DNA from: a virus
Lineage: Duplodnaviria > Caudoviricetes
DNA length: 64,000 bases
Strand: one strand, 5' to 3'
Virus record (IMG/VR): IMGVR_UViG_3300034095_001474
Location: 96,001-160,000 of that record
Under the pieces are notes generated by a model. That model saw only the letters and a list, made by a program, of their open reading frames with translations, did not search any database and was not told where the DNA came from. A program made the translations under genes and the position numbers. Within the stretch, counting starts at the first letter, position 1; every line of letters begins with the position of its first letter. Below, one piece after another: positions 8,683 through 28,796 of the stretch.

Positions 8683-8760
8683 ATATCGTGTTCAGTAAAA
8701 TCGTTTGTTCAGTCAAATCGTCTGTTCAGTGTCACTGAAGTCTTCGTTTCACTGAACACG
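8683..8760 (-). repeat. Three copies of ACTGAACA(N)ACGAT plus a GTTCAGTG/CACTGAAC hairpin
   Basis: Directly visible direct repeats downstream of the EndoVII gene. Confidence 0.6.
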
Positions 8761-9183
8761 TAAATATTTAATAGCTTCTGTTAGTATATGTTTACATTCT
8801 CGTAATTGACCAATAGCTGAATTACAATTTCGACAAAGTAACCCTCTAACTTCCATGGTTTCATGGTCATGGTCAACAAATAATCCTTTTGAACCACCTA
8901 ATTGATAATCTTTTTTACAAATAGCACATTTACCATTTTGATTATAATACATACCTTCATATTCTTCTAAAGTAATACCATATCGATATTTCAGCATTCT
9001 TTTCTTTGCTTCAAGTTTTACTTCTTCAACACTTTTAACTATTTTTGGTTTTCTTTCTTTAGGTGTATACCTAGCATTATTAGATATTGATTCGCATTTT
9101 TTACACCAAGAAAATAAACCATTTCCTCTCATTCTAAATTCACAAGAATCTTTATCTTCACCACATTTTGTACATTTTTTCAT
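8749..9183 (-). CDS. Endonuclease VII-type (HNH) homing endonuclease
   Basis: YGITLEEY...QNGKCAIC...VDHDH...VRGLLCRNCN; N-terminal Zn finger; start taken at MKKCTKC. Confidence 0.88.
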   Translation of the reverse strand: MKKCTKCGEDKDSCEFRMRGNGLFSWCKKCESISNNARYTPKERKPKIVKSVEEVKLEAKKRMLKYRYGITLEEYEGMYYNQNGKCAICKKDYQLGGSKGLFVDHDHETMEVRGLLCRNCNSAIGQLRECKHILTEAIKYLRVQ

Positions 9184-9258
9184 AATAACTTTTACTATAA
9201 ATATGTACAAAATTATAAAAGTTCAAATGTCTGAACATGGCAATATAATGAACACTAG

Positions 9259-9331
9259 TGTACCCGAAGAGATTCGAACTCTTGACCCCTCCGTTAAAAG
9301 CGGAGTGCTCTACCAACTAAGCTACGAGTAC
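9259..9331 (-). tRNA. tRNA-Lys(TTT)
   Basis: Cloverleaf, CTCCG-CT TTT AA-CGGAG. Confidence 0.92.
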
Positions 9332-9337
9332 ATATAG

Positions 9338-9411
9338 TCTCCCCGATTGGGCTCGAACCAATGACTCTCGCATTAAAAGTGCGATACTCTAGCCAACTGA
9401 GTTACGAGGAG
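9338..9411 (-). tRNA. tRNA-Lys(TTT)
   Basis: Cloverleaf, TCGCA-CT TTT AA-TGCGA. Confidence 0.9.
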
Positions 9412-9456
9412 ATATTATTTTTCCAATAACACTCGTAACCATTATGGCCGAGTGCC

Positions 9457-9498
9457 TTATTCCTTTTTCTTTCGCTTGATGTTGATAAGTGTTTTCAT
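9457..9498 (-). CDS. Lys-rich mini-leader ORF MKTLINIKRKKKE upstream of the tRNA-Lys pair
   Basis: Manual translation; followed by GCACTCG/CGAGTGT hairpin. Confidence 0.5.
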   Translation of the reverse strand: MKTLINIKRKKKE

Positions 9499-9533
9499 AA
9501 TTTAATAGTTTTTAATTTTTTTATAATAACGTC

Positions 9534-9632
9534 AGTAGGACTTAAAGGGAACCACTCATTTCTATCCCTTCATCAAACGGTAATTATCCGTTATTTGGCG
9601 TAATCCATACATTGCTGCACGTGTATCCTACT
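9534..9632 (-). ncRNA. CAGCAA-motif stem RNA (copy J)
   Basis: AGTAGGA/TCCTACT closing stem, GTGCAGCAA near the 5' end. Confidence 0.45.
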
Positions 9633-9637
9633 TATTG

Positions 9638-9709
9638 AGCGAGAAATGGGATTCGAACCCACGACCCTCTGGTTGGTAACCAGATGCTCTACCACTGAGC
9701 TATTCTCGC
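9638..9709 (-). tRNA. tRNA-Gly(ACC), A34
   Basis: GCGAGAA/TTCTCGC acceptor, U73, TCTGG-TT ACC AA-CCAGA. Confidence 0.88.
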
Positions 9710-9713
9710 ATTG

Positions 9714-9786
9714 AGCTAAAAATCAGAATCGAACTGATAACCTCTTCATTACTAGTGAAGTGCTCTACCAATTGAGCTATTTCAGC
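9714..9786 (-). tRNA. tRNA-Thr(AGT), A34
   Basis: Cloverleaf, CTTCA-CT AGT AA-TGAAG. Confidence 0.88.
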
Positions 9787-9845
9787 ATTGAGTGTGGTAG
9801 GTCAGCTGAACCTTGAGGCACCCACACTAGTTATCCCTCTTTTTG

Positions 9846-9916
9846 TGCAGAATGAGGGAGTCAAACCCTCGCCTCGGACTTGGAAGGCCCATGTGCTTTC
9901 GTAACACCTATTCTGC
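9846..9916 (-). tRNA. tRNA-Gly(TCC), somewhat degenerate
   Basis: GCAGAAT/ATTCTGC, TGGGC-CT TCC AA-GTCCG, T loop TTTGACT. Confidence 0.72.
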
Positions 9917-10008
9917 AAATTTCGAAGAAAGACAGTCACGGCCACCGCTGGAAATTCTTCTAATGTTAAAGTTTTGGCAAAATGTGGCTCGACCCAAATT
10001 AACACTTG

Positions 10009-10081
10009 AGCCTCAGATGGGACTCGAACCCATAACCTACTGATTACAAATCAGTTGCACAGCCAATCGTGCTCCAGAGGC
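10009..10081 (-). tRNA. tRNA-Thr(TGT)
   Basis: ACTGA-TT TGT AA-TCAGT. Confidence 0.88.
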
Positions 10082-10153
10082 AAATTGATTTTTATTATCC
10101 CCTTGAACTATGTCAAGTACATGGTTAAAAATCTAAATTCTACCTTAACTAAG

Positions 10154-10235
10154 TGAGGCTAGTAGGAATCGAACCTACTCAGCTTACGCAACAGATTTAC
10201 AGTCTGCCCCAGCTCTCCAACTCTGGCGTATCCCC
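10154..10235 (-). tRNA. tRNA-Tyr(GTA)
   Basis: GCAGA-CT GTA AA-TCTGT, long variable arm. Confidence 0.88.
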
Positions 10236-10242
10236 AAATAAC

Positions 10243-10302
10243 AGAATGGCATGTTGATTTTCAAATCCAAATTGAAGCTTTTTAATTTGCTGCAACCATT
10301 CT
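10243..10302 (-). ncRNA. CAGCAA-motif stem RNA (copy A) with an anticodon-like hairpin
   Basis: AGAATGG/CCATTCT stem, TTGCAGCAA, inner TTCAA-TTTGGAT-TTGAA. Confidence 0.5.
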
Positions 10303-10306
10303 TTAG

Positions 10307-10380
10307 ATGTCCGAGAGGGCTTCGAACCCCCAGATTCTCCCTTCAAAGGGGAGTGACTTTGCCAGTTTGTCTATCGGACA
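10307..10380 (-). tRNA. tRNA-Gln(TTG)
   Basis: U1-A72, CTCCC-CT TTG AA-GGGAG. Confidence 0.9.
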
Positions 10381-10437
10381 ATAATCTAATTCTACGCTCC
10401 GTTGCACACGGTCTATGAATTAGTAACAATCTGACAG

Positions 10438-10511
10438 TCGAATAAGCTGGATTCGAACCAGCGTGCTCGGCATTCCAAATGCCGCTAGATAAACCGCTCC
10501 TATACTACTCG
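10438..10511 (-). tRNA. tRNA-Pro(TGG)
   Basis: CGGCA-TT TGG AA-TGCCG. Confidence 0.86.
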
Positions 10512-10554
10512 TTAAAGTACGTTCCTATGAGTGTACGTACAACTGACCTCAAAA

Positions 10555-11208
10555 TTATTTCCTACCTTTTAACCATCCTTTATTAAGATAGGTATCTATT
10601 TCTTCTTTTTTAATTTTTTTGTTGGTACCATCTTTGGTTATCCAACATGTACCAAATTGTGAATTATTTTCACCACTTCCTTTACCTTTCATTACACTTT
10701 TAAGTAACTTTTTTGTTTCCTCAGAATGTTTCTTATTTTTAAAGTTACCTTCATTAGTCTCAAAATACTTTTTTTGAGACTTACTCATTTTATCTTTATA
10801 CTCTGGTGTTTCTTTTGCTTTAGCTATATTTAACATTCTTTGTTCTTTAGTGTTATTGAAATTGTTAATACCAGCTTCAGTGAAAACTTTTTTATGACTT
10901 TCAGACCAAATACGACCACCACCAGAACCACCCTCTTTTAAATTCATACAATTATTATCATTAATCATATCTGCGGTAATCGCTTTTATTTCAGCTTCAA
11001 TCAATAATTCTCTATTATCAAAGAACTCTAATATCTCTTTAACATGGTTTTTTTTACCATGTTTCCTTATACTATATCTTAATCTCTTTCCACTACCCAT
11101 ATAACCATCATACATGTTACATGTTGAGTGCATACCTATATAATATCTATTTGTCACCAAACAAGTAGTCTTATATAAGTAATGTATGTGCTTTTCTTTC
11201 CTTGCCAT
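10555..11208 (-). CDS. GIY-YIG homing endonuclease (Seg-like, NUMOD3 repeats) between two tRNA-Pro genes
   Basis: YLYKTT...YYIGMH, YMGSG, HSEETKK. Confidence 0.88.
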   Translation of the reverse strand: MARKEKHIHYLYKTTCLVTNRYYIGMHSTCNMYDGYMGSGKRLRYSIRKHGKKNHVKEILEFFDNRELLIEAEIKAITADMINDNNCMNLKEGGSGGGRIWSESHKKVFTEAGINNFNNTKEQRMLNIAKAKETPEYKDKMSKSQKKYFETNEGNFKNKKHSEETKKLLKSVMKGKGSGENNSQFGTCWITKDGTNKKIKKEEIDTYLNKGWLKGRK

Positions 11209-11481: not shown

Positions 11482-11577
11482 TTATTCTTCATTACTCAAC
11501 AGATATAACACACCCGATACACTCGGCTTTCCGCCTTGCGTTTGTTTCGGTTGATATGTGATAAATGTTGTTTTCAT
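11482..11577 (-). CDS. Leader peptide of tRNA operon 1 (K/T/Y/Q/P/G)
   Basis: MKTTFITYQPKQTQGGKPSVSGVLYLLSNEE; internal ATCGGGT complementary to the terminator 5' arm. Confidence 0.8.
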   Translation of the reverse strand: MKTTFITYQPKQTQGGKPSVSGVLYLLSNEE

Positions 11578-11649
11578 AATTTCTCTTTTTTTTAAATGGG
11601 TTTTTAGCCCGTTGTTTTAATAAATATAACCTTCTTTCTAAAAGTTATA

Positions 11650-11680
11650 CAAATGTACGAACTTTATTTTGATTTGTCAA
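11650..11680 (-). promoter_or_regulatory. Bacteroidota-type promoter for tRNA operon 1, followed by an ACTTTT-N12-ATATTTAT second promoter motif
   Basis: TTGACA...TACATTTG, i.e. TTG-N20-TAnnTTTG. Confidence 0.8.
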
Positions 11681-12601: not shown

Positions 12602-13336
12602 TTATTTTTCTTTATTTAATAAATATCCTAGTCCTACAGTTAAGTTATGAATCATAACAACTTTACTGGTGCTAGCATAATTAATAACATCTTGAATCAT
12701 AAATGATAAATGTTTACTAGACTTCAACGTCACCTTTGTGTTTCCAGTTATAATGACATTATTTGTTACCATACTAGGTTGGTAATAATACTCAGTGTAA
12801 AAACCAAATATGTTTTTTTGATAGTTAAATTTAACTCTAACTGAATGTCTTACATTTTCTTTGACACTATTATTAAAATATTCTGTATTTTGATATATAA
12901 TACCATAAGACAACGATAATTTTGAATTCTTGAACTTTTTCTTATAACCAATTCCCAACCCAAACCAATTATCATTCTGCATACTTCTCAACAATGAATA
13001 ATTGTATTGATTATTAACAAATGAAAACACATTTTTATGTTCATGACTTATATTTAATTTATGAGAAAATTCATTTTGATTTATACTTGGTGAAAAACCA
13101 ATAGTATAATTTAGTATTGAATTCAAATCTAAATTTTTAAAGTTGATGCCGTTATTTCCAATATATGTTATGTTTACATTATCTATATTGGATTGTGCTA
13201 ATACTCCAGTCAACGAATTATCAAAGTTGTATCCATTTAATATTTCTGAATTTGTAAAGAAAGCAGTGTCTACTGATAATGAATCTTGTGAAAATAAGTT
13301 AACACTAATAAACAAAAATAAAATTAATAATTTCAT
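12602..13336 (-). CDS. Outer-membrane beta-barrel protein (DUF481-like)
   Basis: Signal peptide, amphipathic strands, C-terminal LTVGLGY. Confidence 0.6.
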   Translation of the reverse strand: MKLLILFLFISVNLFSQDSLSVDTAFFTNSEILNGYNFDNSLTGVLAQSNIDNVNITYIGNNGINFKNLDLNSILNYTIGFSPSINQNEFSHKLNISHEHKNVFSFVNNQYNYSLLRSMQNDNWFGLGIGYKKKFKNSKLSLSYGIIYQNTEYFNNSVKENVRHSVRVKFNYQKNIFGFYTEYYYQPSMVTNNVIITGNTKVTLKSSKHLSFMIQDVINYASTSKVVMIHNLTVGLGYLLNKEK

Positions 13337-20709: not shown

Positions 20710-20808
20710 TTTTCTTTTAATTTAATTGTTAATAATAAACTTTTAACAAAGGTACAAAACTTATTTCGATAAAACAAATATATTCGTAAATATTTTTAAA
20801 TTTTTTTG

Positions 20809-20879
20809 AAATTCATACTGGGCTCGAACCAGTGTCTGATGGCTTATCGCCCTCCGTGGTGCCACTCCACTAATGAATC
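20809..20879 (-). tRNA. Degenerate tRNA-like gene (Ile GAT-like, aberrant anticodon loop)
   Basis: Good acceptor, D and T arms; loop reads GGC-GATAA-GCC, no U33. Confidence 0.45.
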
Positions 20880-25060: not shown

Positions 25061-25142
25061 GTTATTGTTTTACAAATGTACAAACTCTTTTTCAATTATC
25101 CTAATTTATTTGTACTTTTTTTTTTATTTTTTTTCTATAAAC

Positions 25143-25198: not shown

Positions 25199-25291
25199 TT
25201 AACTTATGATAATAGATGACCTCCCCAAGCTTTCATCGGCCTCGGCTGCAAAGTTAAATGCAAAATCAAATATGTTAGTTAATGTTTTCAT
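25199..25291 (-). CDS. Leader peptide of tRNA operon 2 (F/D/A/E)
   Basis: MKTLTNIFDFAFNFAAEADESLGRSSIIIS; AGGTCA complementary to TGACCT of the terminator. Confidence 0.8.
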   Translation of the reverse strand: MKTLTNIFDFAFNFAAEADESLGRSSIIIS

Positions 25292-28721: not shown

Positions 28722-28796
28722 CTAACAAACATAGCCCACCCCGTCTACTGCAAGTAAACATAATAAAAGGACGTGTAATGTGTTAATTGTTTTCAT
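28722..28796 (-). CDS. Leader peptide of tRNA operon 3 (L/V/C)
   Basis: MKTINTLHVLLLCLLAVDGVGYVC; GGTGGGCT complementary to AGCCCATC. Confidence 0.8.
   Translation of the reverse strand: MKTINTLHVLLLCLLAVDGVGYVC

Follow-up and report, generated by a model that had tools for sequence, protein, structure and literature searches.

The window, as we call the whole stretch of 64,000 nucleotides of an IMG/VR virus record that was analysed, is AT-rich (G+C content of about 32%), carries all its genes on the minus strand and encodes 33 tRNAs as well as one tmRNA, as called by ARAGORN. Its source is a large freshwater phage, and near-identical DNA is present in many lake-water DNA sequencing runs. 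About 30 promoters of the Bacteroidota type (TTG..TAnnTTTG), a type that is well established for this phylum, are spread across the window; because this promoter type and the translation starts without a Shine-Dalgarno sequence both point to Bacteroidota, the host presumably belongs there. Lysine is the phage's most used amino acid, with 9.2% of the codons in the 67 long ORFs of the window, and AAG accounts for only 18% of the Lys codons in the phage's own genes. Homing-endonuclease genes are interspersed among the tRNAs, and an Endonuclease VII family gene lies at 8749-9183. Three of the tRNAs on the minus strand, namely Tyr(ATA) at 20808-20879, Gly(ACC) at 9637-9709 and Thr(AGT) at 9713-9786, have an A at the wobble position, which is unusual among bacterial-type tRNAs.

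The locus described here consists of a short Lys-rich ORF, the mini-leader, a hairpin that follows its stop codon, and two tRNA-Lys genes. It comprises the following features:

11645..11680, minus strand: the sole upstream Bacteroidota-type promoter (TTG..TAcaTTTG), serving main leader A and the Pro..Lys tRNA block
9709..9637, minus strand: tRNA-Gly(ACC) (ARAGORN)
9534..9632, minus strand: cloverleaf-shaped element of about 100 nt between tRNA-Gly(ACC) and the mini-ORF (predicted fold of -28.6 kcal/mol, z = -2.66)
9499..9523, minus strand: A/T-rich translation-initiation region lacking a Shine-Dalgarno sequence, like that of the phage's other genes
9498..9457, minus strand: mini-leader ORF, MKTLINIKRKKKE plus TAA (translation of ATG..TAA)
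9445..9456, minus strand: region 1, the 5' arm of the hairpin, beginning 1 nt after TAA (RNAfold of the spacer)
9428..9441, minus strand: region 2, the 3' arm of the hairpin, predicted partner of either region 1 or the start of tRNA-Lys
9413..9427, minus strand: spacer with the RNase P site 9412/9411 at its foot, whose inner helix extends the alternative hairpin
9411..9337, minus strand: tRNA-Lys(UUU) number 1, the candidate gated tRNA (ARAGORN; Rfam tRNA, 62.7 bits)
9400..9408, minus strand: region 3, tRNA-Lys nt 4-12 (CTCGTAACT), complement of GGTTACGAG in region 2 (predicted duplex)
9331..9258, minus strand: tRNA-Lys(UUU) number 2, of another sequence lineage, 5 nt downstream and without a leader (ARAGORN; Rfam, 70.5 bits)

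An earlier note on this DNA had described a 13-residue ORF with an MKT start and four Lys in its last six codons, followed by a GCACTCG/CGAGTGT hairpin and two tRNA-Lys(TTT) genes, and all of these elements were recovered at the positions listed. The spacer of 225 nt between tRNA-Gly(ACC) and tRNA-Lys 1 holds both the mini-ORF and the hairpin. The codons of the mini-ORF (ATG AAA ACA CTT ATC AAC ATC AAG CGA AAG AAA AAG GAA TAA) include Lys at positions 2, 8, 10, 11 and 12, i.e., five of 13, and three of these five are AAG, the rarer Lys codon and the one that is read by wobble with a UUU anticodon. Given the Lys share of the 67 long ORFs, the probability of at least four Lys in six codons is 9e-4. 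A start-context weight matrix trained on the same 67 minus-strand ORFs gave the mini-ORF start 13.1 bits, corresponding to the 99.9th percentile among all minus-strand ATGs and exceeding 98.5% of the phage's real gene starts. No Bacteroidota-type promoter motif was found between 11657 and 9412; the mini-ORF has no promoter of its own and is internal to the Pro..Lys transcription unit. Among the 363 tRNAs of the fetched loci, a close, cognate-rich mini-ORF occurs only at tRNA-Lys, and terminator-less mini-leaders for other amino acids were not found. A lake metatranscriptome contig of 164 nt and depth 3.6, possibly DNA carry-over, spans 9379-9488, and a second one spans 9420-9480 with about 85% identity; such contigs cannot show transcription, transcript ends or translation.

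Three longer ORFs of the window, starting at 11577, 25291 and 28796, share the ATGAAAACA start and the A/T-rich upstream region with the mini-ORF, in agreement with the MKT start that the earlier note had ascribed to mini-leader and main leaders alike:

11577..11482, minus strand: main leader before Pro-Pro-Gln-Tyr-Thr-Gly-Thr-Gly-(mini-leader)-Lys-Lys
25291..25199, minus strand: main leader before Phe-Glu-Glu-Ala
28796..28722, minus strand: main leader before Cys-Val-Val-Leu-Leu

These main leaders have 24-31 codons, each with its own promoter (TAnnTTTG motifs at 11657, in the 25389-region and in the 28877-region) and its own U-tract terminator. Their central residues match the tRNAs that come next, and the one at 11577..11482 is conserved in relatives. 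The mini-leader resembles them in its ATGAAAACA start, its A-rich upstream region and residues matched to the following tRNAs, but has 11-13 codons, lacks both promoter and terminator, lies inside the array and is predicted to pair with the tRNA itself. The minus strand also carries, at 25073-25080, the motif TACATTTG, a -7-type promoter element that lies downstream of the cassette B terminator and ahead of tRNA-Phe (25060). It has no properly spaced TTG upstream; if it is active, the tRNA-Phe block would have a second route of transcription that bypasses the attenuator.

The cloverleaf-shaped element upstream of the mini-ORF has four arms; its closing stem measures 8 bp, and the 7-nt loop AUAAUUA sits on a stem of 5 bp. 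It was called neither by ARAGORN nor by Rfam at 9534-9632, is nearly identical in the relatives L001 and L002, and has a tRNA-His at its position in L003 and L004. A further insert lies between this RNA and the mini-leader in L002 (1126-1300) and likewise in L045, L050, L055 and L058. Inserts upstream of the mini-ORF carry an end resembling the 3' half of a tRNA (GGTGCAATTCC..CCCCCACTA, or GGTGCGATTCCCCCTATACCCA in L002) that was not called as a tRNA. A tRNA-Lys(UUU) lineage with an odd D-arm, in which GCAAACAAGTGTAGGC or GCAAACTGGTGTAGGC replaces the usual GCTCAGTTGG, was noted at L001:2749-2821, at L002:1527-1599 and in L127, there as the first tRNA to follow the leader; some relatives have a tRNA of this lineage immediately downstream of the mini-leader.

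Conservation of the mini-leader

Relatives of the locus were gathered by four routes, using a neighbouring protein, an ORF-based DNA pattern, a hairpin-based pattern that left the ORF free, and a metagenome scan. They come from uncultured material, as contigs in IMG/VR and JGI with a maximum length of 362 kb. A blastn search of cultured phages in INPHARED with 8700-10600 yielded matches at the tRNA level only and no relative of the leader, no relatives were found with the neighbouring protein 12602-13336 as query, and an exact 26-mer from the mini-ORF does not occur in IMG/VR. In total, 20 distinct versions of the arrangement of ORF, hairpin and tRNA-Lys were obtained, some of them from contigs of more than 300 kb.

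The earlier note had set conservation in relatives as a test beforehand, and the outcome was positive: the ORF is open, Lys-rich and ends beside the hairpin in all versions. Its length is either 11 or 13 codons, the two forms differing by six bases so that the frame is kept, and each of the 20 versions has four or five Lys codons. In every version and in all four hairpin classes described below, a gap of 0-2 nt separates the TAA from the point at which the hairpin begins to pair, and a tRNA-Lys gene then follows the hairpin in 20 of 20. The consensus reads M-K-[T/N/K]-x-[I/K/N]-N-I-K-x-K-..., with codons 6-8 (N-I-K) and Lys 10 constant and residues varying at positions 3, 4, 5, 9 and 11-13. 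Codons 1-2 and 6-8 were fixed in two of the three search patterns and are therefore partly ascertained; the hairpin-based pattern, with the codons left free, returned solely intact ORFs with the same N-I-K core. Synonymous changes were seen as well (ACA/ACT, ATC/ATT/ATA, AAG/AAA, CGA/CGT/CGC), and several synonymous sites are invariant (ATA, AAG), a pattern also consistent with constraint at the nucleotide level. Because of these invariant sites, and because the ORF is too short for dN/dS or a formal selection test, coding is supported mainly by frame, stop position and context. The ORF and its conservation are direct results of this comparison, and the mini-leader is more than a chance occurrence.

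Two alternative readings have to be weighed here. In the first, the sequence is an untranslated A-rich recognition site in RNA or DNA (ATGAAAA..AACATNAAG), bound for example by a phage protein or a nuclease, and its frame is incidental. The invariant synonymous positions (ATA and AAG, and AAA in the 11-codon group) would suit such a site, an open frame of 12 codons is estimated to arise by chance about one time in three in this composition, and the metatranscriptome contig over 9379-9488, of depth 3.6, may be DNA carry-over. Against it, the indel is in frame, and residues 3, 4, 5, 9 and 11-13 vary while frame, Lys positions and stop-to-helix distance are kept. The start context is excellent, the sequence is a family member of the longer leaders, which have residues matched to their tRNA blocks, and there is neither a Bacteroidota promoter motif nor an Rfam match, so we regard a pure recognition site as rather improbable. 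In the second, the basic peptide of 11-13 residues would itself be functional, e.g., by binding RNA or the ribosome. Its net positive charge and the conserved N-I-K core agree with this, but the peptide is very short, its C-terminal end is freely variable (E, D, R, Q, H), and in all cases its ORF is located within a tRNA precursor, immediately ahead of tRNA-Lys and joined to a conserved helix; a role of the peptide as such would be quite surprising. A putatively translated Lys leader remains our preferred reading of the ORF.

Short ORFs with an MKTIxNIK start and different tails were also observed in L042, L043, L047/L053 and L054, some of these contigs being labelled as giant-virus bins; one example is MKTINNIKSYIRFSRTQL, which is followed by a U-tract hairpin. 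Since these contigs carry it, the MKTIxNIK start module extends beyond this phage group.

The hairpin after the stop codon

The stem named by the earlier note, GCACTCG (9455..9449) paired with CGAGTGT (9435..9429), is part of a longer predicted helix of 9456..9445 with 9441..9428 (helix 1:2; -13.4 kcal/mol, RNAfold), which begins one base after the TAA. Among the relatives, the whole helix is replaced between four hairpin classes with unrelated stems:

Class A: stem GCACTCG/CGAGTGT, in the window and most relatives
Class B: stem CCTTCAA/TTGAAGG, in L003, L004 and L118
Class C: stem CCCC/GGGG, in L127
Class D: stem ACCCCT/AGGGGT, in L128

Class A hairpins consist of 7 bp, a 2-nt bulge and a further 3-4 bp closed by a 3-4-nt loop, and class B hairpins of 7 bp closed by a tetraloop. 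Across the 14 sequences of class A, 96.7% of the cells of helix 1:2 are paired, and compensatory changes were found at two pairs (G-C to A-U, and G-C/G-U/A-U).

The earlier note had also stated that no U-tract terminator follows. Indeed, a scan of the minus strand between the ORF and the tRNAs (9456 to 9412) returned no terminator-like site, and no run of U is visible 3' of the hairpin in any relative or class; the candidate role of an intrinsic terminator was rejected for these reasons. Any control by the hairpin would thus have to act by other means, as the earlier note had proposed. An acceptor/T-arm minihelix was likewise rejected: such t-elements have a 12-bp coaxial acceptor and T stem with a 7-nt T-loop (UUCRANY), which is absent from the mini-leader hairpins of every class, and 9412-9456 gave no tRNA-family hit. 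Permissive Rfam searches of leader, hairpin and upstream cloverleaf-like element found nothing, and 9400-9650, searched to E = 10, returned only chance hits to snoRNAs. A T-box riboswitch, in which a specifier loop and the T-box sequence bind uncharged tRNA, was dismissed on the basis of this last search.

The hairpins bear some likeness to the start of a tRNA. In class B, 17 of 20 aligned bases of the hairpin are identical to the start of its tRNA, a score reached by none of 114 background tRNAs, and in L045 and L040, the loop and 3' arm of the class A hairpin resemble a D-arm. For classes C and D, and for the hairpin of the window itself, there is no significant homology to the tRNA. Common descent may account for a resemblance of region 1 to the tRNA start. 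This raises the possibility of an evolutionary relic, i.e., a truncated main attenuator cassette joined to a decayed duplicate of the 5' third of tRNA-Lys and carried along with the tRNA array in no regulatory role, its tRNA likeness being due to descent or gene conversion. Besides the resemblances in classes A and B, the homology of the first codons to those of the main leaders would be in line with this origin. A relic should decay, however, yet the frame is open in 20 of 20 versions and the stop always abuts the helix. Moreover, the element persists where hairpins and tRNAs have fully diverged, the hairpins of classes C and D and of the window have no significant tRNA homology, and the stems have been improved to full Watson-Crick pairing with compensatory changes, which argues for selection on the fold. 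We consider a functionless relic improbable and continue with a hairpin that is probably maintained for its structure.

Predicted pairing of region 2 with the start of tRNA-Lys

What is new here is that the 3' half of the hairpin is complementary to the start of tRNA-Lys as well, in four unrelated classes. In each of them, the loop-proximal part and the 3' arm (region 2) can pair with the first ~12 nt of the class's own tRNA-Lys:

Window: GGTTACGAG with tRNA nt 4-12, CTCGTAACT
Class B: TTGAAG with CTTCAA
Class C: GAGGGGA with TTCCCTC
Class D: ATAGGGG with CCCCTAT

The predicted leader:tRNA-Lys duplexes have energies of -11 to -16 kcal/mol. Among 99 non-Lys tRNA 5' ends of the same phages, between 0 and 13 matched or beat the own tRNA-Lys. 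When only region 2 was swapped among the four classes, the cognate assignment was the best of 24 permutations, with a small margin. Covariation for this alternative helix (2:3) rests on the four classes, two of which have the tRNA sequence CTCGTAGC in common, and a similar picture could result from duplication or gene conversion; part of the apparent covariation could have arisen in this way because the class B hairpin and parts of the class A hairpin resemble tRNA. Within class A (14 sequences), 99.2% of the cells of helix 2:3 are paired, and single-sided changes always yield wobble pairs. In the L040 group, a C-to-U change in region 2 forms A-U with a changed region 1 and G-U with an unchanged G of the tRNA, which fits a base constrained by two partners.

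In the alternative structure, the spacer adds an inner helix of TGTTATT with AATAATA, the first four letters of which overlap region 2, and the result is a single extended hairpin that has the RNase P site at its base. For the window (region 2 to tRNA nt 14), it was predicted at -13.9 kcal/mol with z = -4.3, and none of 300 shuffles was as stable; overall, the alternative hairpins reached z-scores of -1.4 to -4.6 against dinucleotide shuffles. The first and the alternative hairpin are mutually exclusive and about equal in predicted stability in every class (-13.4/-13.9, -11.6/-10.8, -10.4/-12.1, -6.9/-10.4 and -10.1/-11.2 kcal/mol). Both predicted helices and their conservation are results of the analysis itself.

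With a 30-nt leader from which region 1 was removed, the leader-pairing probability of tRNA-Lys 1 was 0.69, the highest of the window's 33 tRNAs, versus 0.35 with region 1 present; the corresponding masked values in relatives were 0.46-0.89. By raw duplex energy within the window alone, tRNA-Lys 1 ranked third of the 33 tRNAs. The interference energy at equilibrium, i.e., the free energy of leader plus tRNA minus that of the parts, was unremarkable for tRNA-Lys 1 (-1.9 kcal/mol, ninth of 33), which is expected if helix 1:2 competes and lends no support to a switch either. Folding at equilibrium without a ribosome gave ON values of 0.0-0.76 across the versions, not cleanly ON in all, and a domain-swapped fold (region 1 with region 4, the 3' acceptor strand, and 2 with 3) is often the minimum-free-energy structure; nearest-neighbour models leave out the tertiary stabilisation of tRNA. 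The native tRNA fold may form fast enough to prevail, and cleavage by RNase P may precede the arrival of a ribosome.

The 5' acceptor strand of tRNA-Lys 2 (GTACTCG; gene 9258-9331) differs by one base from the hairpin's 5' arm (GCACTCG; 9445-9456), and for this reason, region 2 could also pair with the start of tRNA-Lys 2.

The hairpin may of course act alone, behind a real translated Lys leader, with the complementarity to tRNA being functionless. It could then serve as an RNA polymerase pause, as an entry or blocking site for an RNase or as a 3'-end protector of the spacer RNA, and control, if any, would run via stability or processing order of the precursor, or via Rho, for which an A-rich, structured tRNA precursor is a poor substrate. 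Of all features of the locus, the hairpin and its constant placement at the stop codon are supported best, and the statistics for helix 2:3 are moderate, both of which speak for this reading. It leaves unexplained, however, why in each of four unrelated classes region 2 fits the start of the tRNA that it precedes, why the spacer contributes an inner helix to the alternative hairpin, and why changes in region 2 keep both partners paired. On balance, we judge a hairpin acting alone to be unlikely, though it deserves serious consideration, and we favour the two-helix reading.

A possible switch in tRNA-Lys maturation

We tentatively propose, as a model that we favour but would not yet call probable, that the mini-leader combines a sensor of Lys codons with a bistable RNA switch acting on the folding of the tRNA-Lys precursor and not on transcription termination. 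As the element has neither its own promoter nor its own terminator, it must act inside the precursor. With the 5' acceptor strand and the RNase P site enclosed in the alternative helix, control would be exerted on the folding and processing of the precursor. Four RNA regions would take part, with region 3 comprising the acceptor strand on the 5' side of tRNA-Lys plus the first bases of its D-arm, and region 4 its 3' acceptor strand. In one state, pairing of 1 with 2 and of 3 with 4 would give the leader hairpin and a native tRNA; in the other, pairing of 2 with 3 would produce a leader helix burying the tRNA start and the RNase P site.

The choice between these states would be made by the ribosome, whose leading edge is assumed, from the usual footprint, to lie some 12-13 nt downstream of the position where the A-site codon begins. 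By this geometry, a ribosome with UAA in its A site would cover nearly all of region 1, leaving region 2 free to capture region 3 during transcription, and the precursor would misfold and be poorly matured. A ribosome held up at codons 5, 8 or 10-11 for want of Lys-tRNA would instead stop short of region 1; helix 1:2 would stay closed, the tRNA would fold and RNase P could process it. The 11-codon forms would have the same geometry because stop codon and hairpin are shifted together. The predicted outcome is a feedback in which slow decoding of Lys, caused either by the demand for the phage's most used amino acid or by a host nuclease that has cut tRNA-Lys, would lead to more phage tRNA-Lys. 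Translation, the coverage by the ribosome, the effect on RNase P and the direction of this response are inferred. Both the Lys share of 9.2% and the sensor's preference for AAG fit a gauge of Lys decoding.

In several respects, this arrangement resembles the trpL, hisL, pheL, thrL and ilvL attenuators of enterobacteria. These also have a short ORF rich in codons of the regulated amino acid, as does the mini-leader with five Lys in 13 codons and four to five in all 20 versions, and three to four RNA segments with exclusive pairings 1:2, 2:3 and 3:4, among which the position of the ribosome picks the fold, as it would in our model. At our locus, two exclusive helices of nearly equal predicted energy are conserved in four classes, and by their geometry they may depend on the ribosome. 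Unlike the trpL type, the mini-leader has no intrinsic terminator (a G+C-rich stem with a U-tract), the putative "3:4" being the acceptor stem of the tRNA that is being made; region 1 lies after the stop codon and not inside the ORF; the output is a tRNA and not a set of biosynthetic enzymes; the untranslated default would be ON and not OFF; and the host is presumably of Bacteroidota type, with starts lacking a Shine-Dalgarno sequence. Translational attenuation in ermC and cat/cmlA also works without a terminator, and there, as proposed here, a ribosome on a short leader remodels a downstream hairpin. Those systems hide a ribosome-binding site and respond to a ribosome stalled by an antibiotic, whereas the mini-leader would hide the tRNA 5' strand (nt 1-12) with the RNase P site and presumably respond to the supply of Lys-tRNA. 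The mini-leader has neither the defining terminator of the one nor the defining ribosome-binding site of the other. Minigenes of the lambda bar type, with ORFs of 2-3 codons whose last sense codon defines the tRNA sequestered by peptidyl-tRNA drop-off, were rejected as a match since the ORF has 11-13 codons, its last sense codon varies (E, D, R, Q, H) and its Lys codons are internal.

Full-text searches of the literature returned nothing on control of tRNA genes or operons by leader peptides. That a leader peptide controls tRNA maturation here, with the terminator helix replaced by the acceptor stem of the tRNA, and that this is a new kind of attenuation and a real-time gauge of Lys decoding, is a bolder claim that we offer as a possibility on the doubtful side. 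As for its kinship, the mini-leader is related to the promoter-driven leaders of the tRNA blocks but would differ from them in its output, which is proposed to lie at the level of processing.

PrrC cleaves tRNA-Lys (PMC10264068), and PARIS degrades host tRNA-Lys, which the tRNA-Lys of phage T5 neutralises (PMC11464382). As at our locus, phage-encoded tRNA-Lys is the molecule at stake in the encounters of PrrC with T4 and of PARIS with T5, which involve repair or nuclease-resistant tRNA variants; sensing or a regulated tRNA supply is not described there (PMC10264068, PMC11464382). The link to anticodon nucleases, which the earlier note had drawn, is a plausible context, and a role of the mini-leader against defences that cleave tRNA-Lys is possible but speculative.

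The tRNA genes of phages are usually discussed as a fixed supplement to the host tRNA pool. If the model is true, phages would gauge and adjust their decoding capacity during infection, and the folding or processing of a structured RNA would become a third output of leader peptides, beside transcription termination and exposure of a ribosome-binding site. At about 170 nt, counted from the ATG through the whole tRNA, the element is small and self-contained, and it might, if confirmed, form the basis of a compact codon-specific sensor. For the phage itself, the switch would lift the supply of tRNA-Lys at high demand or while host tRNA-Lys is under attack by PrrC/RloC or PARIS-like systems, and it provides a concrete hypothesis of how large phages may respond to defences that cleave tRNA-Lys.
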